Notes: generated by a model not told the origin, from the sequence alone. Positions 15,081 to 31,904 are shown, counted from the first letter of the stretch. The stretch is DNA of 33,089 bases from Anaerolineae bacterium (GCA_034436915.1 DAOTUR010000700.1:1-33089); one strand, 5' to 3'. Program-made: numbers and translations.

Positions 15081-15189
15081 GGACGAGGCGGGCCTCGTCC
15101 CTACTCTTTGTAACCCGTAGGGGCGGCAGCGTGCTGCGCCCTTGATATAGCGGCATAATTGTAGGGCATGGCGCTCCATGTCCCTACAA
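15081..15189. repeat. Cluster of three capped palindromes between convergent genes (likely bidirectional terminators)
   Basis: The three copies are GGACGAGGCGGGCCTCGTCCCTAC (15081-15104), GTAGGGGCGGCAGCGTGCTGCGCCC (15117-15141) and TTGTAGGGCATGGCGCTCCATGTCCCTACAA (15159-15189). The middle copy has the same core as 11120-11191 with one extra G. Confidence 0.6.
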
Positions 15190-15213
15190 TTTGTCAGGTT
15201 GTTTTAATACTTC

Positions 15214-15897: not shown

Positions 15898-15899
15898 GG

Positions 15900-16139
15900 T
15901 TATTTCTTCCGGGGCCGATTGCTCTCCGCGATCTGACGAACTAACGTAATCGCAGACAAGGCGATGCCAATCATGGCCGGGGTCGAGATTTCCTGTTTTT
16001 CTCCATCATCAGCTTCATCCGCCGAACGATTGAACAGATAAGCACTGACCATGCCCATCAACCCGCCAAACAGCAGGCCCATCAAATAGTTACGGTTGCG
16101 CCACGAGTCATCCCCGCGGCGCGGAGTCACGTTGAACAT
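15900..16139 (-). CDS. Small membrane protein (79 aa), YtxH-like N-terminus
   Basis: A hydrophobic Gly-rich helix (YLMGLLFGGLMGMVSAYLF), an acidic linker and a second helix (PAMIGIALSAITLV). It sits 2-3 nt from both neighbours, which suggests an operon. Family resemblance is weak. Confidence 0.5.
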   Translation of the reverse strand: MFNVTPRRGDDSWRNRNYLMGLLFGGLMGMVSAYLFNRSADEADDGEKQEISTPAMIGIALSAITLVRQIAESNRPRKK

Positions 16140-16142
16140 GCG

Positions 16143-16616
16143 TTATGCCTCCGGATCACGATCAAAGATAGATAAAATACGCGAGAGAGGTGCAAGAGTT
16201 GCGCCAAAGGAAATTGCCGCATTGCTCAGGCGGCGCGATACCCCATCGATCTCGACAGCGAGGCGCTCTGACATGCGCTCCAGCCGTTCAAGCGGCGTGC
16301 CTGCCATGCGATGCAGCACCATCATGCCAAAAATGCCCAGCACAACCACAAAATATACAACGGCCATACACACCACCGCCGGACACAGCACAAACAGCGT
16401 CATGAGCAGATCGCCCACAAACGATACCCGCAGACGATACTGCGGATCATTGATGAGAATCGGCAAAATCGTGAGGCCTAGCACAATCAGAACGGCCCCA
16501 ATGAAGGGGAGCGCAATCTGAAGGCGCGTCTCACGGCGGTGGACAACCGTGCCCGATTCACGCACCGGAGCGGGCGCGTCAAGGGGTGATGCAACAGGAG
16601 GAACGGATTGGGCCAT
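16143..16616 (-). CDS. Membrane protein (157 aa), three TM helices plus an amphipathic C-terminal helix
   Basis: The TM helices are IALPFIGAVLIVLGLTILPILI, FVGDLLMTLFVLCPAVVCMAVVYFVVVLGIFGMMVL. The C-terminal segment is LERLERMSERLAVEIDGVSRRLSN (DUF948-like feel). It is the first gene of the minus-strand operon. Confidence 0.55.
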   Translation of the reverse strand: MAQSVPPVASPLDAPAPVRESGTVVHRRETRLQIALPFIGAVLIVLGLTILPILINDPQYRLRVSFVGDLLMTLFVLCPAVVCMAVVYFVVVLGIFGMMVLHRMAGTPLERLERMSERLAVEIDGVSRRLSNAAISFGATLAPLSRILSIFDRDPEA

Positions 16617-16712
16617 GCATGAGTCTCACAGTGTAGATACGGATTGGACAATTTTTACACTTTTTTACAAAACTCAGACGTAACCTTTTTCCTTTATTGA
16701 GCGGTAGTGTGG

Positions 16713-16742
16713 TTGAATATACGTATACCCTAGTGGTATTTT
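16713..16742 (+). promoter_or_regulatory. Candidate extended -10 promoter for the giant gene
   Basis: TTGAAT (16713-16718), an 18-nt spacer, then TATTTT (16737-16742) preceded by TGG (extended -10 TGn). An overlapping alternative is TTGACA (16741-16746), 17 nt, then GATAAA. Motif match only. Confidence 0.3.
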
Positions 16743-16857
16743 GACACACACGTTCTGTGAAGCGATAAAACATTCACTGAAGTCTCATCTGGTTTAGTCA
16801 CGCCAGTCGCTCTACAGCATTCACACAGCTCATCATTTTCATTTTGCGGAGGTTCTT

Positions 16858-19800
16858 ATGCAGCAACCCGCCCCACGCCGCGCTCTCATCTCGGTCAAAC
16901 GGATGTGTATGCTGGTTATGGCGTTGGCGCTTATGACGTTGATCATCCCACGATCCGCGTTATCAGCCCAGGATATCACTCCTGAACCAACGGCAGACGC
17001 CACCAGCGAATCGGTCATCAATACAGAAGCGCCCGTCATTTCAACGGACGTACCGACCCTGATCCCAACTGAGGCGGCTCCGGTTGCAACAGATGCCGCC
17101 GCGCTGCCAACAGAAGCGGCTCCCCTCCCCGTCGTAACGACAGAGGCCACGCTTGAGGCGACTGCTGCCGCCACTGTGGAACCGACGAGCGCTCTCCTGA
17201 CGAGCTTCGCCGACACCTTCACAGATTGGACGGGCGCAGGCTGGGATATCGTGGATTGGCTGGTGCAAACCACCGATGATGGCAGCGCCTTCCTCATCAC
17301 AGACAGCGCCACCGCCAGCGCCGTGATCCAGAATTTCCAACCCGCCGATTTCCAACTCACGACGCGGATGCGGATCACAGAAAATAATATTGCTGAAATT
17401 CTGGTGCGCTCCGGCCTGGAGAATGACCGTATTATCTTCAGCGCCCAGGGCGCAAGCCGCTTGTATCGCGGCGAGACGCTTCTGGCAGCCTCGGCCAGCG
17501 CCCCCCTGCCCCCGCCCATTGATGCGACAGCCGAACCGCAGTGGTTCACCGTCAGCATCACGGCAGCAGGCGGCACAATTGGCGTCAGCGTCAATGATGT
17601 GCCACAAATCGCCTACACCGATCCCCAGCCCCTCCCTGCGGGGATGATTGTGTTTAAGGCCAATGCCAATAACACGGGCGCGATTGCCCTCGACGACATT
17701 TCCGTCGTCACGATTGACCCGCTGACGGCTGTGATCGCCACACCCGCAGCCGCCCTGGATGTGAGCATCCCGACTGCCGAAGCCACTGCGGACGTTACGG
17801 CCCAGGCCACACTCGAAGCAACGGCAGACGCCACACTCGAAGCAACTGCCGAAGCTACGCTTGAGCCAACTGCCGAAGCTACATCGGAAGCGGCAGATCT
17901 GTCCACATCGATTGCAAAACTGCCCGAATCGCTGCACAGCGCCTTTGAGCTTTATGCAGCCGGCGATGTGGCGGGCGCAACGGCTATGCTGACAGAGCAA
18001 AGCGTTTATCCTGATGCCTACAGCCGTATTTACCTCATCGTGGCCTACGATGGGACTGAAAATATCGCGGGCCTCATCACCGATGATGGCGGTGAAATTA
18101 TCGCTCTTAACGGCACGACCATCAATGCCTATATCAAGCTTGAGACGGTGCTCAAACTGGCAAATAAAGCCTCTGTGACCAGTCTGTATCTGCCTGTAGC
18201 CGCCACCTCCACAGGCCCGATTGCCACAGGCAACGGTTCAGCGGATGGCAATGCCAATCTCGAATCCTTCGATGCGCTCGGCGCAACCGATTGGCACAAT
18301 GCCGGGGTTCAGGGATCAGGCATTGATATCGCCATCGTGGATACGGGCTTTGCGGCGAATGCAGCCCCTTACGCCAACCCGACCATCGGCGGCGATTTTG
18401 CCTGTTTGAAGCAGGCCACTGTGCTCTCGGGTCTGGACAACCAGCCCAATGCCAATCATGGTCGCAATGTTATCGAAGTCGTGTGCGATATTGCGCCGCA
18501 GTCGTCCGTCTATCTGTATCAGGCGATGGATTATGCCACCCTGGGCCGTGCGATTTACAAGGCGCGTACCAGAAGCCCCAAGCCCAGAATTATCCTGATC
18601 ACGATGGATCTGGGCGCAAGCGCCAGCCCCGGCGATGGCACGGGCAATGTCGCGTCTGACAGCCCGGCTGCGCCTGATCCTTACATTCAGATCCAGCAGG
18701 CCCACGATGAAGGCATCGTCGTCATCGCAGCAGCAGGCAACAGCGGCAACAATACGACTGACACACTTCAAACACGTTACATTGCCTATACCAACTCAGG
18801 CACAGGTACAGAAACTATTACGGTGCAGCCTTTGAGCGGCAAAGGGGCCGTGCATATAGGGATGCAATCAACCTCCTGGACAGGTATTCTCGCCGGAGAC
18901 TTACAGACAAGCATCCCTGCAATCTTTGCGGGAAGAGCCGCAGCAAGCGGTTTACCGACCACAACCGCCGGTGATTATTACACCTTTGATTGTACGAATC
19001 CCAATACCATCAACTGCCAGTTCCAGGTCACAGTGACGGCTATAATGGGCCGTGTCGTCCAGGTACAAGTCATCAATGGGACGTTGCCCGGCGCAAATCC
19101 AACAGGTCAAATTCCCACCGCAGGCAGTCTCGCCCGCCCTGCTGATTCGCCCTATGTCATCTCCGTCGGGGCTGTCTGCGCTGATTACAAGCAGAATTTC
19201 CCGGTGTATCCGCAGAGTGCTCGCGGCCCCGTTTATGGCCCCGATGGATCAGCGCCCTCTCTCCTGTCGCTGCCCGGTACGACAGCGCTGCCTCGCTCTC
19301 AGGTCAAGCCGGATGTGATGAGCTTCTCCAATGTTCGCACCTCCGCTGCCACCCCTGTTTTTGTGTTCAGTACACCCGGCTCCTGCACAGGCGGCTTCAG
19401 CGGCACATCGTCGGCGGCAGCGCATGTCGCGGGCATGGTCGCACTGATGGACTCCAACGCGGCCAATGAGAGCATGACGGCGGATACTTTTGTCAGCTTC
19501 AATCCCGATATTGTCCTGACGGGCAATCCGGCGGATGCTGTCGAAAATGTGCGCGATTACCTGCAAACGCACGCGGTGGAAATGCCGTATGGCACAGGCC
19601 CGGCAACCGCCCAGAGCGTTGACAATACCGACGAGAGTGACAGTAACAAGGCCAATTTCGTCGGGGCCAACGGCTATGATATGATCTATGGCGCGGGCCT
19701 GACGGTACTGGGTTCACCCAAATATGACCTCACCAAGTCTGTTAACTACACGGCGCTTCCCGATCACCTGCCGCAGACACAGGATGGCGATATCTGCCCC

Positions 19801-22800
19801 TCGCTGGTTTACGTCGGTCAGGAAAACCCCGGCGACAGCATCATGGATGGCACAATTCTCCATCCGTTCGTCAGTCTGGCCTACGCTTATAATCGTGCGC
19901 CTGCGGATGCCTGTATCATTGTGATGCCGGGCGAGTATGTGACATCACTGCTGCTCCAGCGCTACGGCATGGCTGATCCTGTTGGAAGCAATGCAACCGT
20001 CGTGACAGGCCGCAGCATCTACTCGTATGATGATGTGATGCTGGCCGATTATGCGCCCAGCATCTTCTGGATGAATACGCAGTATTTCAACCGTCACAAC
20101 AGCGCCATCTTTACGCCAGGTGGTCAGCAAACGTTCTTTGGAAGTTACTACGGGACAGCCCAAATCGTTATCGATGGACTGCCCCTCGCAAACTCCAATC
20201 GCACAGTCATCGGCGGCTTTACATTCCTCGCCACCCAGATGCTGGGGGCCATCAGTGCGGCAGGCAACACCAGCAATGCCTTCATTGATGAACCGCAGGG
20301 CATCATGCTGAGTGGGTCAAAGTCTGTAACGATCCGTAACAGCTCCTTCGGCGAAGCCGTCATTGATGGTGTGACCTACCCTGGCTACACCAATCTGCCC
20401 TTAATTGGCGTCAGCTCCACCATGATTCTGGCCCTCAATCAGAGCAACGGCCTGATCATGGATGGCAACCGCTTCGTCAACAATCACGTGGGCTATTCGT
20501 TCACGGGCGGCACGCGGCCTCCTGTCCTGTTTGTCGATAATTCCGGCATCAACAATGACCTGGGCTATGACACAGAGCGCGTGCGCTTCTCGCACAATCT
20601 GGTCCAGGCCAACGAGAATTTGAGCGACAGCACCAACACCTCGTGGGCACCGCTCATCAATGCCAATAGCAGCGCCATTGATATCACTGACAACATGTTC
20701 GTGCAGAACAGAGCGGAAACGCTCATCCGCACGGCCACCAGCAGCCCGACTGACGCGCTCGAAACCCGTATTCTGGGCAATATCTTCCTGAGCAACACCA
20801 TAGCGACTGTGGTGGGTGAAGGTGATTCGGGGCCGCTGATCAATCTGTTTTACGTCAAGTTTGTCAGCTTCATGAACAACACTGTCGTGAAGAATACCGT
20901 GACAAACGCCAAATACGGCACGCTGCTGCTGCGTGGCACGACCTCACCGGCCATTACAGGCACGGGCAGCATGATCAGCGACCTAGATCAAACCTGGAAC
21001 ATCCACAACAACATCATTTACAACAATCTGTTGGGTCGTGGCTTTGCCGATGATACGATCCGCAGCAAAGTGTCTACCTCGTATGAGTGCAAGAACACCA
21101 GCGGCGTCATTAACGCGGGCGCACAAAGAAACTGGGTCTTTGGCAACGGCCTCGATAACAGCGCCTGTGCCGGGGCGATTGCTCTTGCAGGCAATAATAA
21201 CAAGACCAATCTTGATCCCACGCCGTTCTTCCGGGGCACAACAACCTCAAATCCCGTGCTCGACCCGGTGGCAAATCCGGTCTACTATGCGCTGAACAGC
21301 CTTTGCCATGTCATCCCTGCTCCCACGACAGGGCCTTGTATCTCTGCCACATCTCTGGGCTTCGACGGTGTGGATGCGGGCGATACTACGCTCGGCGGCA
21401 CCGTTATCAATAGTCTTGATTTTAATCAGGATGTTGATGGCGGCGCTCGTGTCGTGGATGCCGACAATGGCGGCCTGACGCTTGACCTGGGAGCCTTCGA
21501 GTTTGAGACGTTGAAATTCGTCGCCGATCCCATGGTCATATCAGCTCCCGCAGGCCTGGAAGATACTGTCCTGGTCGTGAGCCTTGACACGCTGCGTTAT
21601 CTGGGTGGCCCGATTGTGACGGGTGGTTCGGGTTCGCTGTCGTTCGAGATTGTGACGTATCCCTCAGATTACGGCACACAGTGTACGGGCGGGACATTCA
21701 ATGATAGCAATCGTGGTGTCCAGATCATCGGCAAAATCCTCAAATACTGCCCGCCGCGTAACTTCTATACTGATCCGGCGGCTGGCTCTCTGGGCAATCC
21801 CAATGTCAGCGCCACCGATCCTGTCTCTCCCGCTGTCCCGCCCGTCGGTGTCCCCTATTGGCCGGATCAACTCAGCCTTACGTTCAAAGTGCGTGATGAG
21901 GCTGGACAGGTCACACAGGGATCACCTGCAACTCTCCAGATCAAAATTGATCCGGTTAATGATGCGCTGCTGAGTGGCAATTATAACTACGCCGTCACAA
22001 GCAGCCGTGCAACGATTGCTGTTCAACTCCGTCCCTACGTCAAGTTCACGCCTGCGGGCGCGACAATCAGCGCCTTCAATGTGGTGTATGCGCCCAAGAT
22101 CGGCAGCCAGTTCGCGGTTGATTTCCCGTACAACTACGTCAGCAGTGCGCCAACGATCATCAATGAGTCGGGTGATGCCCCCCTGTTCGATCAGACTGAA
22201 CTGACCAGTGCCTTCGGTCAGTTGCAGACGACCTTTACTGCTACGGGCAGAGCCGGGCTGATCTATCTCAGTGTCGTTCCAAATCAGACGGGGTACAAGA
22301 AATTCCAATACACCGTTGCTGATCGGAACGGCGGGACAGCCATCTACATTGTTACTATCCGTGTCGCCAGTACCATTCCCAACAACGGTTTGTATGACAA
22401 TACCAGCTTCGCCTTTGTCTACGACGATGCGGTTCTCAACGAGAACGATACGCCCGACAACACCAACATCACAATGGGCAAGTGGGAAAGATTAGGCGCG
22501 GCCAACGCGATCAACAATACGCTGCATCGCACCTCAACCCTCAATGATCAGTTCAGCGTTGAGTATAAAGGGACAGGCTTCGTGCTGTATATGCGTTCCA
22601 GCGGTTCGGGCAGCAGTGACTTCTCTATTGAGATTCTCAATAACGATGTTACTAAGGCGATGACACCCTGGACAACACTCGTCGGCGGCATCGCGGGCGT
22701 CACCACCGATGATCTGCGTAAATCAGATATCACAGGCGGCGGTCTGTGCTACACCCGTGCGCCGATTGCCGGCACAGTCGCTGTTCCACAGCCCACTCTC

Positions 22801-25800
22801 CTCAATGGGAACATCACCAACGGCGTCGATGTCAACTTCACGATCACATGCCAGGATATGCCTGTCTTACCCAACAGCTATACCGTGCGGGTGAAGAATA
22901 AGAAGGCGGGCTATTATCTCGTGGTGGATGCCATCAGCATTCTGAATCCGGCGTCTCTGTTGGGCAGCGTGCTGACCCCTGGCTACTATGATGTGGATGC
23001 CAAGCTGGTGCGTGATATCTTCGATGTGCCCGCCACATGGCAGCCCATCACCAATATGCCCGCCACACCCACAGTTCGCTATTCCAATCTTGTGGCGATG
23101 CAAACCACATCGCTCAATCCGGCTCCCATCACGTTTAAAGTGCATAACGCCACAGGCTTTGCGATTGAAACGACCTTAGAACCGAAATCGCCCTCCTACA
23201 ATATCTGTATCAATGAGGTGGGCCTGCCAACGCCGAAGCTGTGCCAGAAGTTCAATAACACCAGCACCCTGCTGGTAAACAATATCTTCCGCCCCTTCTA
23301 CGGATTGGATCTCAGCAAAGACTACGACGTCACCATCAGCATTGATGCACCAATGCCAGCAGGCGGACGCTTTGTCATCGACTCGATCACCGTGTTCGGT
23401 GACAACATCCTGCCGTCTGGCCCGCTGCCCCTGAGCAATATCGATGATCTGCGGATGGACTGGTTCGTCCTGGGCGGGGGTCGTGAAGATGCCTGGGCCT
23501 TGAGCGGTGTCGCTGCGGCGGCTACCTCTCTCGGCCAGACGCTCACGACATCTTCACCCGCAGGGACAGGCCGCTATGTCGGGCCGTTCCTGGGCTTCGA
23601 GATGCCGCAAGAGGCTGATGCCTTCATCCTGAAGTACACCTATGCCACGACCCTGAGTACCCAGTGGATGATCTGCGTGGATCGCACCCAACTGGCAACG
23701 GCCTATGGCAACTGCATCCAAGTCAATCCGCTTGCAACGGCCCTGCTGCCAACATATCAGATCAGCAGCACCACGACAGGAGCGCTTAAACCTGCAACCG
23801 TCTCCGTCATGACCAGCGGCCCCGTCAGCAATCAACCGCTGCAAGGCTCTCTGATCATCCGCAGCAACATGTTCGATGTTCCCTGGGGGACGGGCAGCAA
23901 TCACACCGTCGAAATTTACAGCCTGGCAAATGCGCCAATAAACTTCGACGTGATCACGCCGCTGGATACCACCGCCAGCCTCACACCCGGCGGCTATGAA
24001 GAAATTACACCCGGCCTGCATTACTTCACCAGCACGTTCACTGAGTCGCCGACTTTCTCCAAGCTGGTGACAGACCCCTGGACACTGCTGACGCTGGCAA
24101 GCTATTCCGGCAGTGGAGCCATGCAGACCAAGCAGCAAAATGCGAGCGTGGCCTTCAATATGGTGGGCGCGACAGGCTTTGCGCCGCGTCTCCAGCTCTC
24201 CACCTCAACTGATGTGCTGAAGGTGTGCTGGGCGGCCTCAGTGAATGCCGTCTTGATTAATACGGCGCGTGTTCAGGACGTGTTGAACAACACAGGCGGC
24301 GTCAACAGTCAGTGCCGCCTGATCGATACTGAATCACTGACTCCGGTCTACAAGGTGGATCGTCCGTTCTTTGGCTTTGATCCTAGCAAGAATTACACGG
24401 TTGTCGTGCAGACGATTGGCGATACGTTTACGCCTGCGCCTCGCGTGGCTCCCATCACACTCATATGGGATGGTCTGACGATCTTCGGCGCGGAGTATGA
24501 TCTAACAAATCTTCAGACTCTCGCGGCCAATGTCGTGAACGAGTTCAGCTTCAAGAATCGCGTGGCTGACAACAAGTTCCTCTACTTTGGCTCAACCTGG
24601 GCCACTCGTGAAGCTGGTCTCGCAGCGGGTCGCTCTGCCCTCAATTACGATACGGCAACGGGCATGGGATCAAGCGTGCTGTTCAAAGTCAGCAGCAGCA
24701 GTTCATCGGATGCGCTGGTCTTCCTGCGCGATACGGCGACCACATCCAGTGACCTGGAAGTGTGCGCGACAAAAGATGACTACAGCGTGCGAACCTGTGC
24801 CACGATTGAATCCAATACCATCGCAGGCGTCAAGGTTCCTGCGGTCTTCCATATGCCGGGGTCAGGTAACTACATCGTCAGCGTAACGGCCATGAGCAAT
24901 GCAGCAATCTCAATCGATACGGTGCAGTATGTTCCGGTCATCACGCCAGAACTGCCCGCAGGCCGCTTTGAAGATACCGATCCGCGTTTGGTCTATGATC
25001 AGAATGCGACCAATCTGGTCTTCAACGGCAGTATGGAAGGGATCTCACCGCTCACGCCGCTTGGATGGAGCACACAGGGAACGTCAACGCTGGCTGTAGG
25101 CGCAACGCCAATCTATGCAGGCACGAAGTCGCTGCGTATCTCTGGCTTTACCGCAGGCAGCGGTGTAAGAAGCTCAACCTTTAGTCTTCAGGCGAACACA
25201 AGCTACGCCGTTGTGGGGCGTGTCCTCACGACAGCCAAGTTCGGCGCAACCATCACGATGGAAGTGCGTCAGGGCGTAACGCTGTTGGCCTCAAAATCGC
25301 TGGATATCAGCACCGTCAATACCGCTCTCGCTGTCAACACCTGGCAACCGCTGCGAATTGACTACACACCCACCATCAGCACGCTGACAGGTGTTGACGT
25401 TCGCCTCGTCATCTCGCAGCCCAATCCGCTCCTCATCCCCCTAACCTATATCTATGTGGATGATGTCTCCGTGACCGAGGGAAGCGCCTGGGATGTCTAT
25501 CCTGGAATCACCTACAGCGGTGGCACGCTCACACGCAGCAATTCGCATGGCGCACAGATGACGTTCTCGTTCGATGGAACGGGCTTCAATCTGGCGACTG
25601 TCGCGGATACGTTGGGCGGCAAGTTTGAAATCTGCTACGGCGCAGGCTCAACACTGCCGGCCTCGCCCACCTGCATGACCTATGTCAATGAAGCGGCAAC
25701 CGCCTCGCGCACGCTCACACGCGGCGTCACGGGTTTGAGCAAGCAGATCTATACCGTGCGCGTGCGTGATATCGAAGAAGGCTATGTCGATACGGCGTCT

Positions 25801-28800
25801 GCCCTCACGAACGTCATCACACGGACAGCCATCTTACGGGTAGGACGGATTGGCATCGACTTCATCGAAGTCTATGATGCACTTCTGCCCTCCCCTATCA
25901 CCATCTCCACCAGCACAACCTCCACCACGATCAGCGATAATGCTGTCGATGGCGGCGGCGCACGTTACATTCAACTTCTGCCCTCTAACCGTTGGAACAC
26001 CCTGACGGGTACACTGGCCGTTGGGCGTAGCGGCGGAACCGTAGCGGCGCAGGTTGATCCTGTTACAAGCGCGATCACGACCCTCGATGGCGGCACTGTG
26101 GCGCAGTTCCGCATCAACGTAGCGGGGACGCAGGATGTCCATCTGGTCGTCTACACAGGCACAGGTGCGGGCTACAGCAGCACGATCCTGGCTTGCGTGG
26201 ACGCCGTGTCCGGCGACCTGAATTATGACAATGTGCTCAAGCGCCAGATCAGCGTAGGGTCAACATCTAACTGTACTGTTGTAACTCTCATCCCCAATCT
26301 GCCCTTCTTCGGCCTGAACAAGAACATGATCACCGCGTTGGGCAATGTGAGCGGGACACACACCATCACGCTGCGGACGCTGACGCCGGGCTACTTCTAT
26401 ATCGATCATGTCACCGTGTTGTATGGCAACAATCTCATCCCTGGCTACTACGAAAATAGCCAGGCTGTGACCGCTGCGGATCTGATGAGCGATACAACAC
26501 CCTTGACCGCAAACTGGACAGCGGAAGCCAATGTCGCCTACAGTGGCGGTTATGCGCTCACAACGACAGTTGTGACGCCTGCCGAAGTGCTTGCACTGCA
26601 TCTCAAGGCCAGCACGGGTCTTACAGTTTTCACGGCCAGCGGCGGGATCAATCGCGGCATCACGCTCAATGTGTATGCTGCTACGGACCTGACAACCATT
26701 CTGTACACCAAGAGCGTCCTCTTCCCGACTTCGCCTGCGGTCACTTACAAAGTGCCTGTCACGCTGGCGGGTCTGCCTCTGGCTGACTACATCGTGACCA
26801 TCGCCCTGAACATGCCGACGAATCCACCGCTGCCTGCACCACAAATCACCACAGGCAAGCTGACAGTGGATGCGGTTGAAGTCTATGGGGCATTGCAGCA
26901 GTTGGGCAGCCTCTATGATGATGCGTCGGTGACACCTGCTGGCGTACCCTATCTCACCTATACACCCAACACCAATGCCGCGTGGACAACCGTCAGCGGC
27001 GCAACAGCAGTGGGCTATCTCAACCTGACTTACCATCAGACGAATCTGCTGGATGCAGGTGTCGCCTTCGGCGTCGCCTCTCCCAACGCTCAAGGTTTGA
27101 TCCTGCGTTACGGTGCAACGACCAATACCAGCGTCAAAGTGTGTGTGACGGATGCCTCTGATGCCAGAACTTGCAGCACCGATATTGTGCTGCTGGGTAG
27201 CGCTGGCAAATCGAAGGTCATCAGCTTTACAAATCCGACGTTCGCAACCGCACCAGGGGTTGGGCCCTACAGCGTCTCTATCGTGAATGCCCTTCCAGCC
27301 AAGATTTTCACACTGGATGCGGTGCAGGTTCTCGAAGCTGGCGCGTTGGCGGAGGGCATTTATGATGCCATCTTCCTCAAGTCAGCCACAGCACCTACGA
27401 TCCTGAATGGCACATGGACAACGCCAACCGCTGCGGCGAACAGCAGCAGCGGTACGCCTAGCTCATATGTTGAATTCACGTTCACAGGTATTGGCTTCAG
27501 CCTCGTCTTGAACGAGACAACACTGACGGCCAGCACCTACACGCTGTGCGTGCAGGCCGGATCATTGCCCTGTACAACACCTGCGGCGTTCAATGAGCAC
27601 ACGGCAACCATCAATCGCGGGGCTGCCGGAGATTACGCGCTGACCGTGACGGGCTTGCACCTCAGCAGCACCGACGCTACATATACGGTGCGCGTCGTCA
27701 ATACGACCCCTCCTCCGGGCACAAGCAATCTCACTGTCAAGTCGCTGCATATCCTTGGCTCTCGTCCGGGGGTAATGCTCGACTCAACCAGTGGGCGTAT
27801 CGAAAATACCGATCCGCGTCTGCGCTATCTACCCTTCGGCTCGCTGACAGATACTGTCATCAAGGTCGCGCCGACTCCGTCAGGTTTCAGCCAGCACCAG
27901 GGCATTTTGCGTGGGGCAGGCGTGTACTTCGAGTTCCAGGGCGGCGGTTTTGAATATGGTCGTCAGACAGCCGCAACGGAAAGCGCCTATAACTACTGCT
28001 ACGGCGTCGTCACAACGAGCGGCACACCCAACTATACCTGTGTACCAACCGCGCCACAGCAAGCCAACCAGCTTAATACGGCCTTGCCCGGTATGCAGCG
28101 TATCAACGTGATCAATACGGGCGCAACCTGCCAGACCGTCACCTGTTGGGTGCGTCTTTACAGCACCGAAGCCAAGCTTCTCCCAGTGGACTTCATTCGT
28201 ATCGTCGATGATATCCCCCTGACAATGGGAACCTACGAAGAAGGCAATCCGGCCTTCCATACCGTGCGCGACTTTGGTGGCTCAAGTTACGTGTTTGATG
28301 ATGCTGCACTCAACACCTCGGTTGTAAACACGTTTACGCTGGCATCTGGTGGCTATGTGCGCCAGTTCTCAGGGATAGCTGCAAGCGGCAAAGTTTCGGC
28401 GCTGAACGGCGGTCTGGCCTTCACCTTCCGTGGGACGGGCTTTGGGATCAACTTTGTCCGCAACGCCTTCGCCGATGCTGTCCAGATCTGCTATCGGGCA
28501 CGCTCCACCAATGCCGCTATCGCAGAGGCTGATATCCCGATTATCATCAGCAGTGGAACGTGTGTTGTCTACGATAACTACTCTACAACTGTGCTCTACA
28601 ATCAGGTTCGTGCGATCCAGGGCCTGCCCGAAGGGAATTACGGCGTCTTTGTGCAGATGTTGGGAGACAACTACCGCCTGCCCAATACTGTGACGCCGCA
28701 AACACATAGCACGACACAGCTTCCCATCCAGATGGTGATTGATAATGTCACCGTGTTCAATGATCCCTGGTACAACGCCATCACCAACACCAGTTGGGAT

Positions 28801-31755
28801 ACCCCGACGGATGCGGCGCTCCAGGTTCTCAAGCCCGGCACCGTCTACGAGCCAAGCTACGTGAATCGCGTCGCCCAGAATCAGTTCCTGTATAACGGCC
28901 CCTGGTCAACACTGGCTGTTGTAGGCGGCTTTGCAGATCGTGTGGCGCTCACCGGATCAAGTATGCTGTTCCGCACGTCCGGCGCATCAGGCATGATCCT
29001 GTATGTGACGGCGGCGGCGGCAAATGGCCCGGTTCAGGTGTGTGCTCACCCGATCAACACCACCATCACGCCAGCCGTTCTGGAAGATCCGACGGTAGAA
29101 AACACTCACTGCCAGACGCTGCAAACACGCGGGACAGGCAATCGCTATGCCCTGCCCTTCCGCTTTGTTGATGGCGATAAAAGTGAGTATTCAGTGTCGA
29201 TTGTGACACTGGAAAATGCCCTCGTCCAAATCGATGCCATCGAACTGATCGATACAACAGTTGCCATGACAGCGGGGACGTATGAATCCACCTCACCGTT
29301 CATCAAGTACAGTGAGTTCACCCCGTCCGACACAGCTCTCGCCAACGGCGGCTTCTCCGGCACAACACCCTGTGCAGGTTGGGCGGCAGATGGATTGCCT
29401 CTGCCTGTTCCCACTCTCTATACGCTTTATGCCGATGCGCCGACGAGCTGCCTGCTCACAACGACAGTCCTGAATCAAGGGATCATCAGCCCGGCGTTCA
29501 CGCTCCAGGCAGGTACGAAATACACCCTTGTCGCCCGTGTTTACATCATTGCGAGTCGGGTCAGCGCGGGCATCCAGATGGAAGCCAATGGCAGTGTCGG
29601 TATCACCCCCCAAACGGAAACCCGTACAGGCGGTTGGTATACCTTGCGCCAGGAGTTCCTTGCGACCAGCAGTGCGCCCGTATCGTTACGCTTCAAGCGG
29701 ACTCTGCCTACCTCGGTTGGCACAGTCCAGTTTGCAATAGATGGATTGTGGCTCATCCCTGAAGGTCGTGGACAGTGGGATCAGATCTATGCAACGGCCT
29801 ACTCTGCGACCAGCGCCATGCGGAGCCAGACGCCGGGCGCACAGGTGACGTTCCGCTTCAATGGCACAGGCTTTGCAGTCAAGATGCCGACGGACGCAAA
29901 TTCCGGTGAAGTGGAAATCTGCTACGGCACAGCGCCCAACCCGACGGCCCCCTGCTTCACCTATCAGCAGGACAGCACCGCGCCGACCTACGATGTGAGC
30001 CGTGTCGTGGCAGGACTTCCGCTCGGCAACTACTATGTTCGCATCACCGAAAAAGACGATGGCATGTCTGGGGCAACCGCCCTGCCAACGCCGCGCATCC
30101 CGCTCGGCATCACCATCGACAGCGTGACAATCTTTGGCGCAGAATCAATCCCGGCTGATATCACACAGATCGGGCAGTACGAGCAGAATGCCAAGAATAA
30201 CTCTGGCACGCCGTATCTGGTGAAAGTGCCAACGCTCAACTGGCGCGACTTCGCCGCAGCGACTTGGACGGGCGGCACAGCCAGCCAAGTCACAACAACA
30301 GCAGGTGTGGCCTCAATCACCAATGCAGGCGCGACGGTGGTGATGAGACTGAGCAACAGCCTGACCAATCCGACGGTGATTCTGTACAACCGTGTGCCGA
30401 CGAACCAGAGCAGCACGCTGTTGATCTGCGCGGCCAGCGATCCGGCACCAAACCAATTGAAGCCGAATATCGTGGGCGGTGTTGTTTGGACAGGCACGGT
30501 CTTCCAATTGAATTCAGCTTCGACTGATAAATGTGTGATCCACAACCTGAAGTCAGGTAATCAGGTGATTCTGTCGGCCACATCGACGGCGGGCAGCCCG
30601 GAACTCAAGCTGACAGCTCTTGGCGATCTTGGCTACAAGATCATCACATTCACCACACTGACACCGGGTGGCTTTAACGTCGATGCCTTTGAAGTGATCG
30701 ATGGCGTGCTGCTACCTGCGGGTCTCCATGACCAGATCAAGCCGGACGCCCAACTGAACTTCAATAACTCAGGCAATAATCCGGCCAGTGCGCTGAGTAC
30801 AGATCCGAAGTGTAATCCACGCTATGGATGGTGTACCTTAAAATTAGCGTCCTACTACGGCGGCTCAACCGCCACAACGCGCCAACCGGGCGCGAATCTG
30901 AAATTCTCCTTCCAGGGATCAGGCTTCTCGATCCTGTCATCACTCAGTGTGTATGGATCTGACATGCGGATTTGTCTGGCTCCCAGCAATGTCGCAAATC
31001 CGTTCCCACCGGACAATCGTGTTTACTACGGCAACCCGACGGGTCTCTTCGAGACATGGTGTGATGTCGTCACAACCAAACTCAACGCTGTGGAATGGGA
31101 TGCCAAGAATCCGGATCGTATCTTTCCAGCGGTCTCGCCATCTGGTTATTACCAGTATGGGTTTGCCTATTATGGGTTGGTCGCTGGTAGCTATCAGGTT
31201 GAAGTGAAGCTCATTGATGTCTCAATGGGTCTGAACGACTCGCTGACCATCGATGCTGTGGCCGTGTTCGGGGGTGATCCCACGCTGCTTGAGGCGGATG
31301 GACGCACATCTAATCTGTTCGATGATCGGCAGTCGCAGATCGTCTATGAACCTGCCGTGAACTGGACAGCGCTCGCAGCGACAACGCAGCCGCCGTTCTT
31401 CAAAACCGAGATGAAAGCCAACAACGCAGGCAGTATTGTCCGTCTGAGAGTTGAGGGCAATGCCATCACGATTTATCAGACGATGGCCACGGATCGCGTG
31501 GTCGGTTTCGCCGTTGTCCCCAGTAACACCCGTGATGTGCGTGTGTGTTTGATGGTCGGCGATGGGCCAATCCCGTGTGAACCGGAAGCCGTAGAAATCG
31601 GCGAACGGACCACAACCAGCTATCGCCAGAGCAATTTCAATGGCGCAGGTATCCCGATCTTGATCTACGGTCTGGGGGTCGGTGAACATAATCTCATCAT
31701 TGAGAATCGTGATACTCGTGCGATGTCGATTGATGCCTTCCGTGTTCATCCGTAA
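16858..31755 (+). CDS. Giant secreted multidomain protein (4,965 aa): LamG-like + subtilase S8 + parallel beta-helix + cadherin-like x2 + 19 lectin/CBM-like modules
   Basis: A single ORF with no stop for 14,898 nt. GGAGG (16848-16852) lies 5 nt before the ATG. The Sec-type signal peptide is MQQPAPRRALISVKRMCMLVMALALMTLIIPRSALSA/QD. Domain motifs are listed in the sub-features. A strong intrinsic terminator lies 30 nt after the stop. Confidence 0.9.
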   Translation: MQQPAPRRALISVKRMCMLVMALALMTLIIPRSALSAQDITPEPTADATSESVINTEAPVISTDVPTLIPTEAAPVATDAAALPTEAAPLPVVTTEATLEATAAATVEPTSALLTSFADTFTDWTGAGWDIVDWLVQTTDDGSAFLITDSATASAVIQNFQPADFQLTTRMRITENNIAEILVRSGLENDRIIFSAQGASRLYRGETLLAASASAPLPPPIDATAEPQWFTVSITAAGGTIGVSVNDVPQIAYTDPQPLPAGMIVFKANANNTGAIALDDISVVTIDPLTAVIATPAAALDVSIPTAEATADVTAQATLEATADATLEATAEATLEPTAEATSEAADLSTSIAKLPESLHSAFELYAAGDVAGATAMLTEQSVYPDAYSRIYLIVAYDGTENIAGLITDDGGEIIALNGTTINAYIKLETVLKLANKASVTSLYLPVAATSTGPIATGNGSADGNANLESFDALGATDWHNAGVQGSGIDIAIVDTGFAANAAPYANPTIGGDFACLKQATVLSGLDNQPNANHGRNVIEVVCDIAPQSSVYLYQAMDYATLGRAIYKARTRSPKPRIILITMDLGASASPGDGTGNVASDSPAAPDPYIQIQQAHDEGIVVIAAAGNSGNNTTDTLQTRYIAYTNSGTGTETITVQPLSGKGAVHIGMQSTSWTGILAGDLQTSIPAIFAGRAAASGLPTTTAGDYYTFDCTNPNTINCQFQVTVTAIMGRVVQVQVINGTLPGANPTGQIPTAGSLARPADSPYVISVGAVCADYKQNFPVYPQSARGPVYGPDGSAPSLLSLPGTTALPRSQVKPDVMSFSNVRTSAATPVFVFSTPGSCTGGFSGTSSAAAHVAGMVALMDSNAANESMTADTFVSFNPDIVLTGNPADAVENVRDYLQTHAVEMPYGTGPATAQSVDNTDESDSNKANFVGANGYDMIYGAGLTVLGSPKYDLTKSVNYTALPDHLPQTQDGDICPSLVYVGQENPGDSIMDGTILHPFVSLAYAYNRAPADACIIVMPGEYVTSLLLQRYGMADPVGSNATVVTGRSIYSYDDVMLADYAPSIFWMNTQYFNRHNSAIFTPGGQQTFFGSYYGTAQIVIDGLPLANSNRTVIGGFTFLATQMLGAISAAGNTSNAFIDEPQGIMLSGSKSVTIRNSSFGEAVIDGVTYPGYTNLPLIGVSSTMILALNQSNGLIMDGNRFVNNHVGYSFTGGTRPPVLFVDNSGINNDLGYDTERVRFSHNLVQANENLSDSTNTSWAPLINANSSAIDITDNMFVQNRAETLIRTATSSPTDALETRILGNIFLSNTIATVVGEGDSGPLINLFYVKFVSFMNNTVVKNTVTNAKYGTLLLRGTTSPAITGTGSMISDLDQTWNIHNNIIYNNLLGRGFADDTIRSKVSTSYECKNTSGVINAGAQRNWVFGNGLDNSACAGAIALAGNNNKTNLDPTPFFRGTTTSNPVLDPVANPVYYALNSLCHVIPAPTTGPCISATSLGFDGVDAGDTTLGGTVINSLDFNQDVDGGARVVDADNGGLTLDLGAFEFETLKFVADPMVISAPAGLEDTVLVVSLDTLRYLGGPIVTGGSGSLSFEIVTYPSDYGTQCTGGTFNDSNRGVQIIGKILKYCPPRNFYTDPAAGSLGNPNVSATDPVSPAVPPVGVPYWPDQLSLTFKVRDEAGQVTQGSPATLQIKIDPVNDALLSGNYNYAVTSSRATIAVQLRPYVKFTPAGATISAFNVVYAPKIGSQFAVDFPYNYVSSAPTIINESGDAPLFDQTELTSAFGQLQTTFTATGRAGLIYLSVVPNQTGYKKFQYTVADRNGGTAIYIVTIRVASTIPNNGLYDNTSFAFVYDDAVLNENDTPDNTNITMGKWERLGAANAINNTLHRTSTLNDQFSVEYKGTGFVLYMRSSGSGSSDFSIEILNNDVTKAMTPWTTLVGGIAGVTTDDLRKSDITGGGLCYTRAPIAGTVAVPQPTLLNGNITNGVDVNFTITCQDMPVLPNSYTVRVKNKKAGYYLVVDAISILNPASLLGSVLTPGYYDVDAKLVRDIFDVPATWQPITNMPATPTVRYSNLVAMQTTSLNPAPITFKVHNATGFAIETTLEPKSPSYNICINEVGLPTPKLCQKFNNTSTLLVNNIFRPFYGLDLSKDYDVTISIDAPMPAGGRFVIDSITVFGDNILPSGPLPLSNIDDLRMDWFVLGGGREDAWALSGVAAAATSLGQTLTTSSPAGTGRYVGPFLGFEMPQEADAFILKYTYATTLSTQWMICVDRTQLATAYGNCIQVNPLATALLPTYQISSTTTGALKPATVSVMTSGPVSNQPLQGSLIIRSNMFDVPWGTGSNHTVEIYSLANAPINFDVITPLDTTASLTPGGYEEITPGLHYFTSTFTESPTFSKLVTDPWTLLTLASYSGSGAMQTKQQNASVAFNMVGATGFAPRLQLSTSTDVLKVCWAASVNAVLINTARVQDVLNNTGGVNSQCRLIDTESLTPVYKVDRPFFGFDPSKNYTVVVQTIGDTFTPAPRVAPITLIWDGLTIFGAEYDLTNLQTLAANVVNEFSFKNRVADNKFLYFGSTWATREAGLAAGRSALNYDTATGMGSSVLFKVSSSSSSDALVFLRDTATTSSDLEVCATKDDYSVRTCATIESNTIAGVKVPAVFHMPGSGNYIVSVTAMSNAAISIDTVQYVPVITPELPAGRFEDTDPRLVYDQNATNLVFNGSMEGISPLTPLGWSTQGTSTLAVGATPIYAGTKSLRISGFTAGSGVRSSTFSLQANTSYAVVGRVLTTAKFGATITMEVRQGVTLLASKSLDISTVNTALAVNTWQPLRIDYTPTISTLTGVDVRLVISQPNPLLIPLTYIYVDDVSVTEGSAWDVYPGITYSGGTLTRSNSHGAQMTFSFDGTGFNLATVADTLGGKFEICYGAGSTLPASPTCMTYVNEAATASRTLTRGVTGLSKQIYTVRVRDIEEGYVDTASALTNVITRTAILRVGRIGIDFIEVYDALLPSPITISTSTTSTTISDNAVDGGGARYIQLLPSNRWNTLTGTLAVGRSGGTVAAQVDPVTSAITTLDGGTVAQFRINVAGTQDVHLVVYTGTGAGYSSTILACVDAVSGDLNYDNVLKRQISVGSTSNCTVVTLIPNLPFFGLNKNMITALGNVSGTHTITLRTLTPGYFYIDHVTVLYGNNLIPGYYENSQAVTAADLMSDTTPLTANWTAEANVAYSGGYALTTTVVTPAEVLALHLKASTGLTVFTASGGINRGITLNVYAATDLTTILYTKSVLFPTSPAVTYKVPVTLAGLPLADYIVTIALNMPTNPPLPAPQITTGKLTVDAVEVYGALQQLGSLYDDASVTPAGVPYLTYTPNTNAAWTTVSGATAVGYLNLTYHQTNLLDAGVAFGVASPNAQGLILRYGATTNTSVKVCVTDASDARTCSTDIVLLGSAGKSKVISFTNPTFATAPGVGPYSVSIVNALPAKIFTLDAVQVLEAGALAEGIYDAIFLKSATAPTILNGTWTTPTAAANSSSGTPSSYVEFTFTGIGFSLVLNETTLTASTYTLCVQAGSLPCTTPAAFNEHTATINRGAAGDYALTVTGLHLSSTDATYTVRVVNTTPPPGTSNLTVKSLHILGSRPGVMLDSTSGRIENTDPRLRYLPFGSLTDTVIKVAPTPSGFSQHQGILRGAGVYFEFQGGGFEYGRQTAATESAYNYCYGVVTTSGTPNYTCVPTAPQQANQLNTALPGMQRINVINTGATCQTVTCWVRLYSTEAKLLPVDFIRIVDDIPLTMGTYEEGNPAFHTVRDFGGSSYVFDDAALNTSVVNTFTLASGGYVRQFSGIAASGKVSALNGGLAFTFRGTGFGINFVRNAFADAVQICYRARSTNAAIAEADIPIIISSGTCVVYDNYSTTVLYNQVRAIQGLPEGNYGVFVQMLGDNYRLPNTVTPQTHSTTQLPIQMVIDNVTVFNDPWYNAITNTSWDTPTDAALQVLKPGTVYEPSYVNRVAQNQFLYNGPWSTLAVVGGFADRVALTGSSMLFRTSGASGMILYVTAAAANGPVQVCAHPINTTITPAVLEDPTVENTHCQTLQTRGTGNRYALPFRFVDGDKSEYSVSIVTLENALVQIDAIELIDTTVAMTAGTYESTSPFIKYSEFTPSDTALANGGFSGTTPCAGWAADGLPLPVPTLYTLYADAPTSCLLTTTVLNQGIISPAFTLQAGTKYTLVARVYIIASRVSAGIQMEANGSVGITPQTETRTGGWYTLRQEFLATSSAPVSLRFKRTLPTSVGTVQFAIDGLWLIPEGRGQWDQIYATAYSATSAMRSQTPGAQVTFRFNGTGFAVKMPTDANSGEVEICYGTAPNPTAPCFTYQQDSTAPTYDVSRVVAGLPLGNYYVRITEKDDGMSGATALPTPRIPLGITIDSVTIFGAESIPADITQIGQYEQNAKNNSGTPYLVKVPTLNWRDFAAATWTGGTASQVTTTAGVASITNAGATVVMRLSNSLTNPTVILYNRVPTNQSSTLLICAASDPAPNQLKPNIVGGVVWTGTVFQLNSASTDKCVIHNLKSGNQVILSATSTAGSPELKLTALGDLGYKIITFTTLTPGGFNVDAFEVIDGVLLPAGLHDQIKPDAQLNFNNSGNNPASALSTDPKCNPRYGWCTLKLASYYGGSTATTRQPGANLKFSFQGSGFSILSSLSVYGSDMRICLAPSNVANPFPPDNRVYYGNPTGLFETWCDVVTTKLNAVEWDAKNPDRIFPAVSPSGYYQYGFAYYGLVAGSYQVEVKLIDVSMGLNDSLTIDAVAVFGGDPTLLEADGRTSNLFDDRQSQIVYEPAVNWTALAATTQPPFFKTEMKANNAGSIVRLRVEGNAITIYQTMATDRVVGFAVVPSNTRDVRVCLMVGDGPIPCEPEAVEIGERTTTSYRQSNFNGAGIPILIYGLGVGEHNLIIENRDTRAMSIDAFRVHP
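17191..17728 (+). other. Domain of giant protein: LamG/DUF1080-like concanavalin-type jelly roll (aa ~112-290)
   Basis: FADTFTDWTGAGWDIVDW...FQLTTRMRITENNIAEILVRSG...WFTVSITAAGGTIGVSVNDVPQIAY...GMIVFKANANNTGAIALDDISVV. The pattern resembles Laminin_G_3/DUF1080. It is flanked by T/A/E/P-rich linkers. Confidence 0.5.
17806..17901 (+). repeat. Four tandem 24-nt coding repeats (ATLEATAD/ATLEATAE/ATLEPTAE/ATSEAADL linker)
   Basis: The units are GCCACACTCGAAGCAACGGCAGAC (17806-17829), GCCACACTCGAAGCAACTGCCGAA (17830-17853), GCTACGCTTGAGCCAACTGCCGAA (17854-17877), and a degenerate fourth (17878-17901). A related partial unit lies just upstream from about 17773. Confidence 0.6.
17905..19715 (+). other. 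Domain of giant protein: subtilase prodomain-like segment plus peptidase S8 catalytic domain
   Basis: The prodomain-like segment is RIYLIVAYDGTENIAGLITDDGGEIIALNGTTINAYIKLETVLKLANKASV. Asp495 sits in IAIVDTGF (18340-18342) and His534 in NANHGRNV (18457-18459). Asn628 sits in AAAGNSGN (18739-18741) and Ser851 in FSGTSSAAAHVAGMVALM (19408-19410). The domain ends near MIYGAGLTVLG. Confidence 0.8.
19795..21507 (+). other. Domain of giant protein: right-handed parallel beta-helix (PbH1-type repeats)
   Basis: The N-terminal cap is DGTILHPFVSLAYAYNRAPADACIIVMPGEY. Successive coils include VTIRNSSFGEAVIDG, LIMDGNRFVNNHVGY, VRFSHNLVQANENL, IDITDNMFVQNRAE, RILGNIFLSNTIA, VSFMNNTVVKNTV and WNIHNNIIYNNLLG. 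The C-terminal cap is LDLGAFEFE. Confidence 0.75.
21508..22371 (+). other. Domain of giant protein: two cadherin-like/Ig-like domains
   Basis: The first domain reads LSLTFKVRDEAGQVTQGSPATLQIKIDPVNDA. The second reads GYKKFQYTVADRNGGTAIYIVTIRVAS. These are the usual bacterial cadherin-like end strands. Confidence 0.55.
22372..31752 (+). other. Domain array of giant protein: 19 contiguous ~125-190-aa beta-sandwich (CBM/lectin-like) modules, including two CBM4_9-like units (24937-25482 and 29254-29766)
   Basis: Each module opens with G-x-[YF]-[DE]-[DEN] and closes with a hydrophobic-D-x-hydrophobic-x-V strand (VVDAISILN, IDSITVFGD, IDFIEVYD, IDHVTVLYG, VDAVEVYG, LDAVQVLE, IDNVTVFND, IDAIELID, IDSVTIFGA, VDAFEVIDG, IDAVAVFGG, IDAFRVHP). 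Many carry F-x-F-x-G-x-G-F and a Cys pair. Boundaries are approximate, about +/-30 nt. Confidence 0.65.
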
Positions 31756-31784
31756 CAACTGCACCACAGATCGCTGAACAAATG

Positions 31785-31821
31785 CACAGCCGCCCCTCAA
31801 TTTGAGGGGCGGCTGTGTTTT
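31785..31821 (+). terminator. Rho-independent terminator of the giant gene
   Basis: CACAGCCGCCCCTC (31785-31798) pairs perfectly with GAGGGGCGGCTGTG (31804-31817), a 14-bp GC-rich stem with loop AATTT. It is followed by TTTT (31818-31821), 30 nt after the TAA stop. Confidence 0.85.
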
Positions 31822-31904
31822 ACGCTGTATTCGATGCTTGGTTCACACGAATTATCCCCTACAATAACTCGCCAAATTGCTCATTCTCTTTAAGAGGAGT
31901 TGTT

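Follow-up and report, generated by a model that had tools for sequence, protein, structure and literature searches.

Among the closest described counterparts of the protein considered here are the cell-envelope proteinases of Gram-positive bacteria (lactocepin PrtP/PrtS and the streptococcal C5a peptidase ScpA; MEROPS S8A), proteins of 1,100–2,000 amino acids (aa) from monoderm hosts that combine a Sec signal, a prodomain, an S8 protease domain with an insert and a long run of beta-sandwich domains by which the protease is kept at the cell surface. Their insert is of the PA type, their A/B domains are Fn-type, and an LPXTG or S-layer-type anchor completes them. Individual parts have counterparts elsewhere: the galactose-binding-domain-like fold serves as an accessory domain on extracellular enzymes, as in the carbohydrate-binding modules (CBMs) CBM6, CBM35 and CBM36 and the CE2 N-terminal jelly roll, and the beta-helix is the fold of lyases and hydrolases (RbmB, PL6, PL9, GH28) and of phage tailspikes. 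Comparable in size are the RTX adhesins of the type 1 secretion system (T1SS; LapA, MpIBP, SiiE), the gliding adhesin SprB of the type 9 secretion system (T9SS), GhpA of the Aureispira grappling hooks (5,898 aa) and GhlA of Litorilinea aerophila (Chloroflexota; 6,596 aa, 49 DUF11 domains) (PMC13319060). The present protein, 4,965 aa long, is encoded in a 33,089-nt stretch of DNA from an Anaerolineae bacterium (GCA_034436915.1, DAOTUR010000700.1:1-33089), referred to below, at its full length, as the window. It is an extracellular subtilase or surface protein of giant size and modular build, in which well-known domain types are joined in an uncharacterised combination, and it belongs to an unnamed, conserved family of giant proteins of the Anaerolineae.

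The giant protein resembles the cell-envelope proteinases in its Sec-type signal, putative prodomain, S8 domain with insert, long beta-sandwich run and presumed monoderm host, but it gives no PA, Fn or anchor match, places a DUF1080 domain ahead of the prodomain, and adds a predicted 600-aa beta-helix and 19 jelly rolls, reaching 4,965 aa. Its main jelly-roll module has a predicted fold like that of CBM6, CBM35, CBM36 and CE2, but bears a signature of its own (W..Y-S-G-G, F-x-F-x-G-T-G-F, a Cys pair and I-D-a-x-x-V) and belongs to no Pfam family, and 19 jelly rolls in a row go far beyond the usual architectures of carbohydrate-active enzymes. The beta-helix shares with the lyases, hydrolases and tailspikes a predicted fold, PbH1-like N-x-F/N-N-T repeats and a DUF1565-type start, whereas its sequence matches are sub-threshold, no catalytic residues are assigned in it, and it is fused behind a protease. 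Like GhpA and GhlA, the protein is one polypeptide in the range of 5–6.6 thousand residues with tandem beta-sandwich domains; those proteins are surface-exposed and consist of DUF11 Ig-like domains with no protease or beta-helix, GhlA also being without a classical signal peptide. No scan of the giant protein gave a match to PF01345 (DUF11). The RTX/T1SS adhesins and SprB share its size class and a repetitive beta-sandwich extender, but their hosts are diderm and export them through dedicated systems, their repeats are near-identical and they bear RTX or CTD signals; here not one of these features appears.

No described family with the full architecture was found in Pfam, NCBIfam or the literature on Anaerolineae giant proteins, subtilases and sheaths, in agreement with the sequence-only reading, an earlier annotation of the window made without database searches. 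The only related statement found in the literature is a general one, namely that Anaerolineae are enriched in giant genes, the products of which are probably surface proteins (PMC10608941), while PMC5460018 deals with Chlorobi peptidases and not with the giant family.

The giant gene is confirmed as real and intact. The open reading frame (ORF) call and the translation contain no internal stop or frameshift in 4,965 codons, a length that would stay stop-free with a probability of about 1e-79 at the base composition of the window; in 50 shuffles no stop-free run exceeded 324 codons. The GC content at codon positions 1, 2 and 3 is 0.55, 0.49 and 0.65. The longest direct DNA repeat inside the gene measures 37 nt at about 75% identity, and the only tandem repeat of note is a 24-nt unit at 17797-17850 (period 24, 2.2 copies); with no long internal repeats, the sequence offers nothing on which an assembly could collapse or expand. 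A recent repeat expansion was ruled out by the same lack of DNA repeats and by the 18–33% identity of the modules to module M16. Because the record is a single 33-kb metagenomic contig, an assembly artefact, a chimera or a decaying pseudogene was also weighed. It is countered by the uninterrupted 14.9 kb, by end-to-end colinear alignment with 11 independent giants, by flanking synteny as in other genomes and by conserved N- and C-termini. Approximately 25 independent assemblies of metagenome-assembled genomes (MAGs) with intact family ORFs of 3,300–5,300 aa leave no realistic explanation of this kind, and its probability is practically negligible. The features of the gene product are as follows.

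16858..31755, plus strand: giant-protein ORF, ATG start, 4,965 aa, 14,898 nt, 45% of the window
16858..16968, plus strand: Sec-type signal peptide, aa 1-37, predicted cleavage ALSA/QD
16969..17202, plus strand: T/A/E/P-rich linker, aa 38-115, from the translation
17203..17712, plus strand: DUF1080/3-keto-disaccharide-hydrolase domain, LamG-like jelly roll, aa ~116-285, PF06439
17713..17907, plus strand: second linker, aa 286-350, with 24-nt (8-aa TLEATAEA-type) tandem repeats at 17797-17850
17908..18267, plus strand: prodomain-like (I9-like) segment, aa ~351-470, from hhalign, kept in orthologs
18268..19737, plus strand: Peptidase S8 catalytic domain, aa ~471-960, PF00082 in two stretches
18763..19122, plus strand: insertion of ~120 aa splitting S8, aa 636-755, between the oxyanion Asn and the Ser half
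19738..21537, plus strand: predicted right-handed parallel beta-helix, aa ~961-1560, from sub-threshold Pfam matches and AlphaFold2 (AF2)/Foldseek
21538..22368, plus strand: two putative cadherin/Ig-like (tandem-95/Big_9-like) domains, aa ~1561-1837, sub-threshold
22369..31752, plus strand: 19 beta-jelly-roll modules M1-M19, aa 1838-4965, from module delineation
24931..25473, plus strand: M6, CBM_4_9-like, aa 2719-2852, PF02018 at 32.9-37 bits (cut-off 25.9)
29248..29754, plus strand: M15, CBM_4_9-like, paralog of M6, PF02018 at 16.6 bits, sub-threshold with full-profile alignment

The domain order read by eye in the sequence-only reading was reproduced almost item by item by Pfam, hhalign and AF2/Foldseek, including the 24-nt-repeat linker, the intact catalytic residues and the exact number of 19 back-to-back modules running to the last residues. 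Its prodomain-like segment, its beta-helix and its lectin and cadherin-like labels have weaker support. For the prodomain, hhalign of the family profile aligns aa 402-460 with residues 55-107 of the subtilisin BPN' propeptide, its C-terminal half, directly ahead of the catalytic domain, whereas Pfam has no I9 match. The beta-helix has the periodicity and the Foldseek matches of such a fold, while its Pfam scores stay below threshold. The lectin and cadherin-like labels have likeness at the level of fold and sub-threshold signals, but no family model scores above its cut-off for the main module or the cadherin pair. Ahead of the prodomain, PF06439 (DUF1080/3keto-disac_hyd) reaches 29.9 bits when aa 100-300 are scanned alone (cut-off 26.8) and 21.6 bits in the whole-protein scan, and the domain is kept in orthologs.

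The protease is the best-defined component by family membership, with PF00082 scoring 57.4 bits against a cut-off of 21.8 and the family profile matching subtilisin BPN' at E 1e-11 in a PDB sequence search. D495 (VDTG), H534 (NHG), N628 (AAGN) and S851 (GTS) align to subtilisin D32, H64, N155 and S221 and are invariant or nearly so across the 12 aligned giants, and the two S8 halves are the best-conserved parts of the protein, with 46–50% identity among orthologs. Pfam scans of the insertion and the downstream segments gave no PA or Fn match. Judged from these residues the protease looks active, and their conservation in the giants indicates that proteolysis is under selection.

The segment behind the protease opens with a DUF1565-type motif (...HPFVSLAYAY...CIIVMPGEYV), is rich in N-x-F and N-N-T repeats, and ends in LDLGAFEFE, an instance of D-x-G-A-[FY]-E in which all family members have the same D, G, A and E. 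The Asn ladder and the cap are likewise invariant, as are Asp and Arg residues. NosD, Beta_helix and DUF1565 score 15–17 bits, all under the Pfam cut-offs. Modelling of aa 940-1880 with AF2, from an alignment of 12 sequences, gave a predicted local distance difference test (pLDDT) score of about 60–86 over the helix with triplet-strand periodicity; pLDDT falls below 50 in the Ig-like region and the C-terminal part of the helix, so the model is usable for the beta-helix only. The top Foldseek matches are RbmB lyase, rhamnogalacturonan lyase, PL6 chondroitinase B and GH28-type enzymes, at probability 1.0, yet with a TM-score of only about 0.4–0.46 on the target.

These matches raise the alternative that the protein is mainly a polysaccharide-degrading enzyme, in which a beta-helix lyase or hydrolase is aimed by the CBM array and S8 serves self-processing only. 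The best structural matches are indeed lyases and hydrolases of polysaccharides, the biofilm-matrix lyase RbmB among them, Asp and Arg are invariant in the helix, and CBM arrays are typical of carbohydrate-active enzymes. However, the low TM-score comes from a model of medium confidence, the helix matches none of the lyase or hydrolase families of Pfam and has no relative by sequence in the PDB, and most of its invariant residues belong to the structural Asn ladder, with no active site identified. This alternative is therefore regarded as very improbable.

Two cadherin-like domains behind the helix are plausible on modelled and profile evidence: tandem-95 (NF012211) reaches 34 bits over two stretches (cut-off 90), Big_9 reaches 20.5 bits (cut-off 23.6), and weak Foldseek matches to cadherins come from the low-confidence part of the model. 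The remainder of the protein is the module array. Modules M1 to M19 are 126–191 aa long and each ends in x-I-D-x-x-x-V, M19 doing so two residues before the stop codon. Seventeen of them form one family with one conserved Cys pair each and the pattern G-x-Y-D/E...W...Y-S-G-G...G-A-x-V-x-F-x-F-x-G-T-G-F...C...C...G-L-x-x-G-x-Y-x-V-x-V...I-D-A-x-x-V; the remaining two, M6 and M15, are CBM_4_9-like. An AF2 model of M16, built from a 17-paralog alignment, has a pLDDT of 80 and matches CBM6, CBM35, CBM36, CBM86, the CE2 N-terminal jelly roll and Cry toxin chains in Foldseek (TM-score 0.5–0.65, E 3e-5 to 5e-3). The main module matches neither CBM_6, CBM_35 nor any other Pfam or NCBIfam model, its CE2_N signal stays at a sub-threshold 15–20 bits, and a PDB sequence search with the 17-module profile returned no relative. 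The main module thus has a predicted CBM6/35-like fold, fails sequence membership and appears to merit a family of its own, and the label "lectin" is best read as a call at the level of the modelled fold.

The array is old and ordered. The other modules of the window protein are 18–33% identical to M16, whereas orthologous modules in different giants share 31–42%, and in the nearest relatives the best match of each module is the colinear one, by a clear margin. A block of about 800 aa has been duplicated, with aa 2423-3200 (24124-26457) resembling aa 3845-4625 (28390-30732), that is, M4-M8 resembling M13-M17, each block including one CBM_4_9-like module. Each copy is orthologous to its positional counterpart in other giants, and the duplication therefore predates the divergence of the orthologs. 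Past the signal the protein has 52 Cys residues, paired, one pair per module and invariant among orthologs, which fits an extracellular, disulfide-bonded protein. The same main module was also found on other extracellular enzymes, including a trypsin-like protease and a metallophosphoesterase.

Word-indexed searches returned only 6–16 relatives, partial or shorter proteins from Anaerolineae/Aggregatilineales MAGs, missing the giants even with the N-terminal part as query, and the C-terminal 1,183 aa gave no match in such a search; the family was exposed by an exhaustive profile search with the 17-module alignment. With this profile, 799 representative proteins pass E<=1e-3 and 107 pass E<=1e-30; the matches include approximately 45 representatives of 3,000–5,400 aa with 13–18 detectable modules. 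Nearly all of these carry DUF1080, prodomain and S8, together with the beta-helix and the Ig-like domains as far as phmmer picked these up, and their source names are "hypothetical protein" or the generic "S8 family serine peptidase". Twelve giants of 4,394–5,217 aa, including the window protein, were aligned; they are colinear end to end, the others being 31–38% identical to the window protein, and each of the 19 modules is present in 9–11 of the 11 other giants. Counting one genome per GTDB species, long relatives occur in about 30 species, all of them Anaerolineae, Aggregatilineales or Chloroflexota MAGs, and the best GTDB-representative match to the window protein has 35% identity. Outside Anaerolineae, matches such as those in Lentzea and Amycolatopsis are confined to the prodomain and S8. 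The sequence-only reading had treated the gene as an oddity of one contig; it is instead a member of a conserved, colinear and largely syntenic family of the class. That a gene of about 15 kb keeps its domain order at 31–38% identity suggests that the protein does something these organisms need.

Array length differs within the family, with proteins of about 3,300 to 5,400 aa; a subgroup of shorter giants, of about 3,300–3,900 aa and ending in ...IDRILVN, occurs in other genomic contexts, and forms of about 1,370 aa consist of S8 and beta-helix with no array. Three paralogs of 2,000–2,200 aa, P0002-P0004, have the same core of prodomain, S8, beta-helix and Ig-like domains, but their catalytic His is replaced by Arg and their Ser by Gln or Glu, so that they are likely pseudoproteases, judging by these substitutions. 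Their C-terminal array differs as well: between its CBM_4_9-like units lie other units, each of about 90 aa.

The N-terminus bears what appears to be a cleavable Sec-type signal, with an n-region RR..K.R, an h-region MCMLVMALALMTLII and a probable cleavage site after A37; 10 of 12 orthologs share the n-region, the h-region and, at the corresponding site, an A/QE pattern, and this signal is the sole hydrophobic segment of the whole protein. The protein is acidic and Thr-rich. A lipoprotein anchor was considered and rejected, as there is no lipobox and C17 lies at the start of the h-region. Motif searches of the protein found no LPXTG, GGXGXD or RGD, Pfam and NCBIfam scans found no SLH, RTX, PEP-CTERM, T9SS-CTD, GlyGly-CTERM or other sorting model, and the window neighbours include no sortase or secretion-system gene, as had been claimed before. 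A dedicated secretion or anchoring operon was rejected, since the neighbours are housekeeping genes and the P0002 paralog sits in an unrelated context. At the C-terminus the sequence ...IIENRDTRAMSIDAFRVHP is hydrophilic, forms no membrane segment and is kept as the last beta-strand across the family; nearly all complete giants end in ...I-I-E-N-R-D-H-x-R-x-L-S-I-D-A-I-x-V plus 1–3 residues, so the missing sorting signal is a property of the family and not the result of truncation. The Chloroflexota are said to have been described as monoderm by Sutcliffe in 2011. They lack BAM (beta-barrel assembly machinery) and lipopolysaccharide genes and are regarded as monoderm (PMC13319060). In a monoderm host, export through Sec alone would place the protein outside the cell, and together with the conserved signal this removes the puzzle that the sequence-only reading had seen in the missing secretion partner.

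The explanation tentatively favoured here is an extracellular, glycan-tethered subtilase. The signal would be removed between A37 and Q38, and in a monoderm cell the protein would then lie outside without further machinery. I9 prodomains of subtilases are intramolecular chaperones and inhibitors that are removed autocatalytically, and the I9-like prodomain may likewise fold and then inhibit S8. By cutting itself between prodomain and S8, the protein would release DUF1080, linker and prodomain as one piece and switch the protease on. The mature chain would comprise S8, the beta-helix, two Ig-like domains and 19 jelly rolls, a glycan-tethered protease whose beta-helix and CBM6/35- and CBM4/9-like modules would bind polysaccharide in place of a covalent anchor. 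The folds predicted for DUF1080, CBM_4_9, the main module and the beta-helix are of a glycan-binding type. The polysaccharide could belong to the envelope or sheath of the cell itself, or else to extracellular matrix or necromass. The array, about 80 nm long at an estimated 4 nm or so for each jelly roll, would be a rod of roughly 80–100 nm that holds the protease on or near glycan-rich substrates, making the protein a functional analogue of Gram-positive cell-envelope proteinases.

Several observations weigh against this explanation. The residues conserved within the modules (F-x-F-x-G-x-G-F, the Cys pair, G-L..Y-x-V and I-D) form a structural core, with no obvious sugar site. The beta-helix and Ig-like parts depend on a model of medium to low confidence, the Pfam scan of the prodomain-like segment returned no I9 match, and signal-peptide cleavage and a monoderm envelope are both deduced for this organism. 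The loss of catalytic His and Ser in P0002-P0004 indicates that the scaffold can work without proteolysis, and 19 modules kept in fixed order at one syntenic locus at about 30% identity fit a structural role better than a digestive enzyme.

In such a role the 19 jelly rolls, the Ig-like domains and the beta-helix would together build a bead-on-string rod, fixed in length at about 100 nm, as a surface fibre or envelope component in the outer layer, sheath or appendages of the Anaerolineae filament, possibly oligomerised through the beta-helix, with S8 acting mainly in maturation or as an enzymatic tip. The genomic position of the family bears on it directly. One locus was found per genome, with a conserved housekeeping neighbourhood in 10–16 species: the order region-4 protein, S1-domain protein, FtsK, ..., SRAP (minus strand), small membrane protein (minus strand), giant and glycosidase homolog recurs in 10–16 of about 30 loci (compared loci L002-L030), the syntenic block covering 10075-16616 and 31815-32816 of the window. 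In these loci the neighbours are 48–75% identical to those of the window, whereas the giant reaches 25–35% and the small membrane protein 28–39%. A fixed locus combined with the low identity of the giant points to an old resident of this position that evolves fast, as surface proteins do, and colinear members in a shared neighbourhood give the gene the look of vertical inheritance. Fixed module order, with orthologous modules at 31–42% against about 20% for paralogous ones, and pseudoprotease paralogs that keep the scaffold speak for a fibre too, and GhpA and GhlA provide a precedent, as single polypeptides that span whole surface filaments (PMC13319060). Conversely, the catalytic residues are conserved in the giants, sequence homology to GhpA/GhlA is missing along with any DUF11/PF01345 match, and a length varying from about 3,300 to 5,400 aa agrees poorly with a fixed-length rod. 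A structural fibre is the main rival, a live alternative although on the unlikely side, and the tethered subtilase is retained as the favoured explanation.

A bolder version joins the two, and is rather unlikely as a whole: a protease-tipped fibre of fixed length, about 100 nm, could be a previously unseen surface organelle of filamentous Anaerolineae, an analogue of the GhpA/GhlA grappling hooks with a protease at its tip. Each fibre would consist of one giant polypeptide, or of a few bundled through the beta-helix, with the 19 non-interchangeable modules as its shaft and a head of subtilase and beta-helix freed from the DUF1080-prodomain cap by autoprocessing. Given the vertical-looking inheritance and the fixed locus, such a fibre would belong to the cell biology common to the class, with envelope or sheath maintenance, filament cohesion and contact-dependent feeding as candidate roles.

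The sequence-only reading had named sheath, prey-binding protease and adhesin as candidate roles, all of them conjectural. If the protein served adhesion in aggregates or biofilms, its array and beta-helix would stick the filament to other cells, matrix polysaccharide or particles, with the protease as an accessory. CBM-like and cadherin/tandem-95-like folds and an acidic, Thr-rich, extracellular protein are in keeping with this, as is the enrichment of giant genes in Anaerolineae and their link to surface proteins, aggregates and biofilms (PMC10608941). However, a protein without a cell anchor could bridge only by binding its own envelope too, and adhesin arrays are usually near-identical and variable in copy number, whereas the modules here are old, divergent and fixed in position. 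Adhesion as the main function is hence quite improbable, and the glycan-tethered subtilase keeps its preferred place.

Few filamentous bacteria are as abundant as the Anaerolineae in wastewater sludge, anaerobic digesters and sediments; few of their members are cultured, and to our knowledge almost nothing is known about their envelope and surface biology. What has been gained is a defined family of giants and a new jelly-roll module with 799 representative matches, while the intact giants and the shorter paralogs without His and Ser offer a natural comparison. The family raises the question of how a monoderm filament retains a giant enzyme with no known anchor. If the protein is an enzyme, it would represent an extreme of CBM-targeted proteolysis, relevant to matrix and necromass turnover; if it is a fibre, it would represent a new type of bacterial surface appendage. 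GhlA shows that giant bead-on-string surface filaments exist in filamentous Chloroflexota (PMC13319060).

The boundaries of the giant gene and the divergent gene next to it are formed by the following features.

16143..16616, minus strand: gene for a 157-aa membrane protein with two transmembrane (TM) segments, divergent to the giant gene, no Pfam/NCBIfam family
16617..16857, plus strand: 5' intergenic region, 241 nt, 40% GC, from the upstream minus-strand ORF to the ATG
31785..31817, plus strand: terminator-like hairpin, 15-16 bp, GC-rich, followed by TTTT

A Shine-Dalgarno site, GGAGG, lies at 16848-16852, 5 nt ahead of the ATG, and the upstream region is poorer in GC than the giant gene and the window, both of which have 56%. 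No match to a sigma-70 consensus promoter was found upstream of the giant gene, and the window, upstream region included, contains no Rfam family and no tRNA. The hairpin begins 30 nt past the stop codon, and the 75-nt stretch 31756-31830 that contains it folds at -37 kcal/mol. A Shine-Dalgarno site, an upstream region of its own, a terminator hairpin and a separate start of the next gene together make the giant gene look monocistronic and independently transcribed, much as the sequence-only reading had described it, with a stem of 14 bp where 15-16 bp were found.

The next gene encodes a glycosidase homolog (Indigoidine_A family), whose mechanically called ORF starts at GTG 31815, inside the terminator hairpin. 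Its start is probably the ATG near 31905, behind AAGAGGAG, yielding a product of about 300 aa as in other loci. On the other side, the 157-aa protein has two predicted TM helices and a helical tail, occupies the same position in 16 of 30 related loci and evolves as fast as the giant, which makes it the only candidate for a specific partner; since the whole block is syntenic, its adjacency to the giant proves nothing by itself. The remaining neighbours in the window are housekeeping genes, encoding an ABC-2 transporter with GldG-like auxiliaries, RpoD, a GNAT acetyltransferase, a 638-aa region-4 protein, an S1-domain protein, FtsK, a GT4 glycosyltransferase, SRAP and the pseudouridine-5'-phosphate glycosidase homolog already mentioned. 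The gene of the P0002 paralog lies at 10001-16630 of another locus, L001, in an unrelated housekeeping context.

In nine loci (L005, L008, L012, L013, L020, L021, L024, L026 and L030) an extra gene for a protein of about 220 aa, absent from the window, lies between the small TM gene and the giant, about 110–260 nt upstream of the latter. By the look of its sequence, its product may be related to the DUF2344/TIGR03936 radical-SAM-associated family. The 638-aa protein (8016-9932, plus strand) has a C-terminal sigma-70 region-4 helix-turn-helix as its only recognisable feature and belongs to the synteny block of 10 loci. Finally, a four-gene cluster at 727-4667 (plus strand), 12 kb upstream of the giant gene, encodes an ABC ATPase, an ABC-2 permease, a GldG-like protein (ABC_transp_aux/DUF4350/DUF7088) and a DUF4340 protein, and resembles transporters of the GldA/F/G type.

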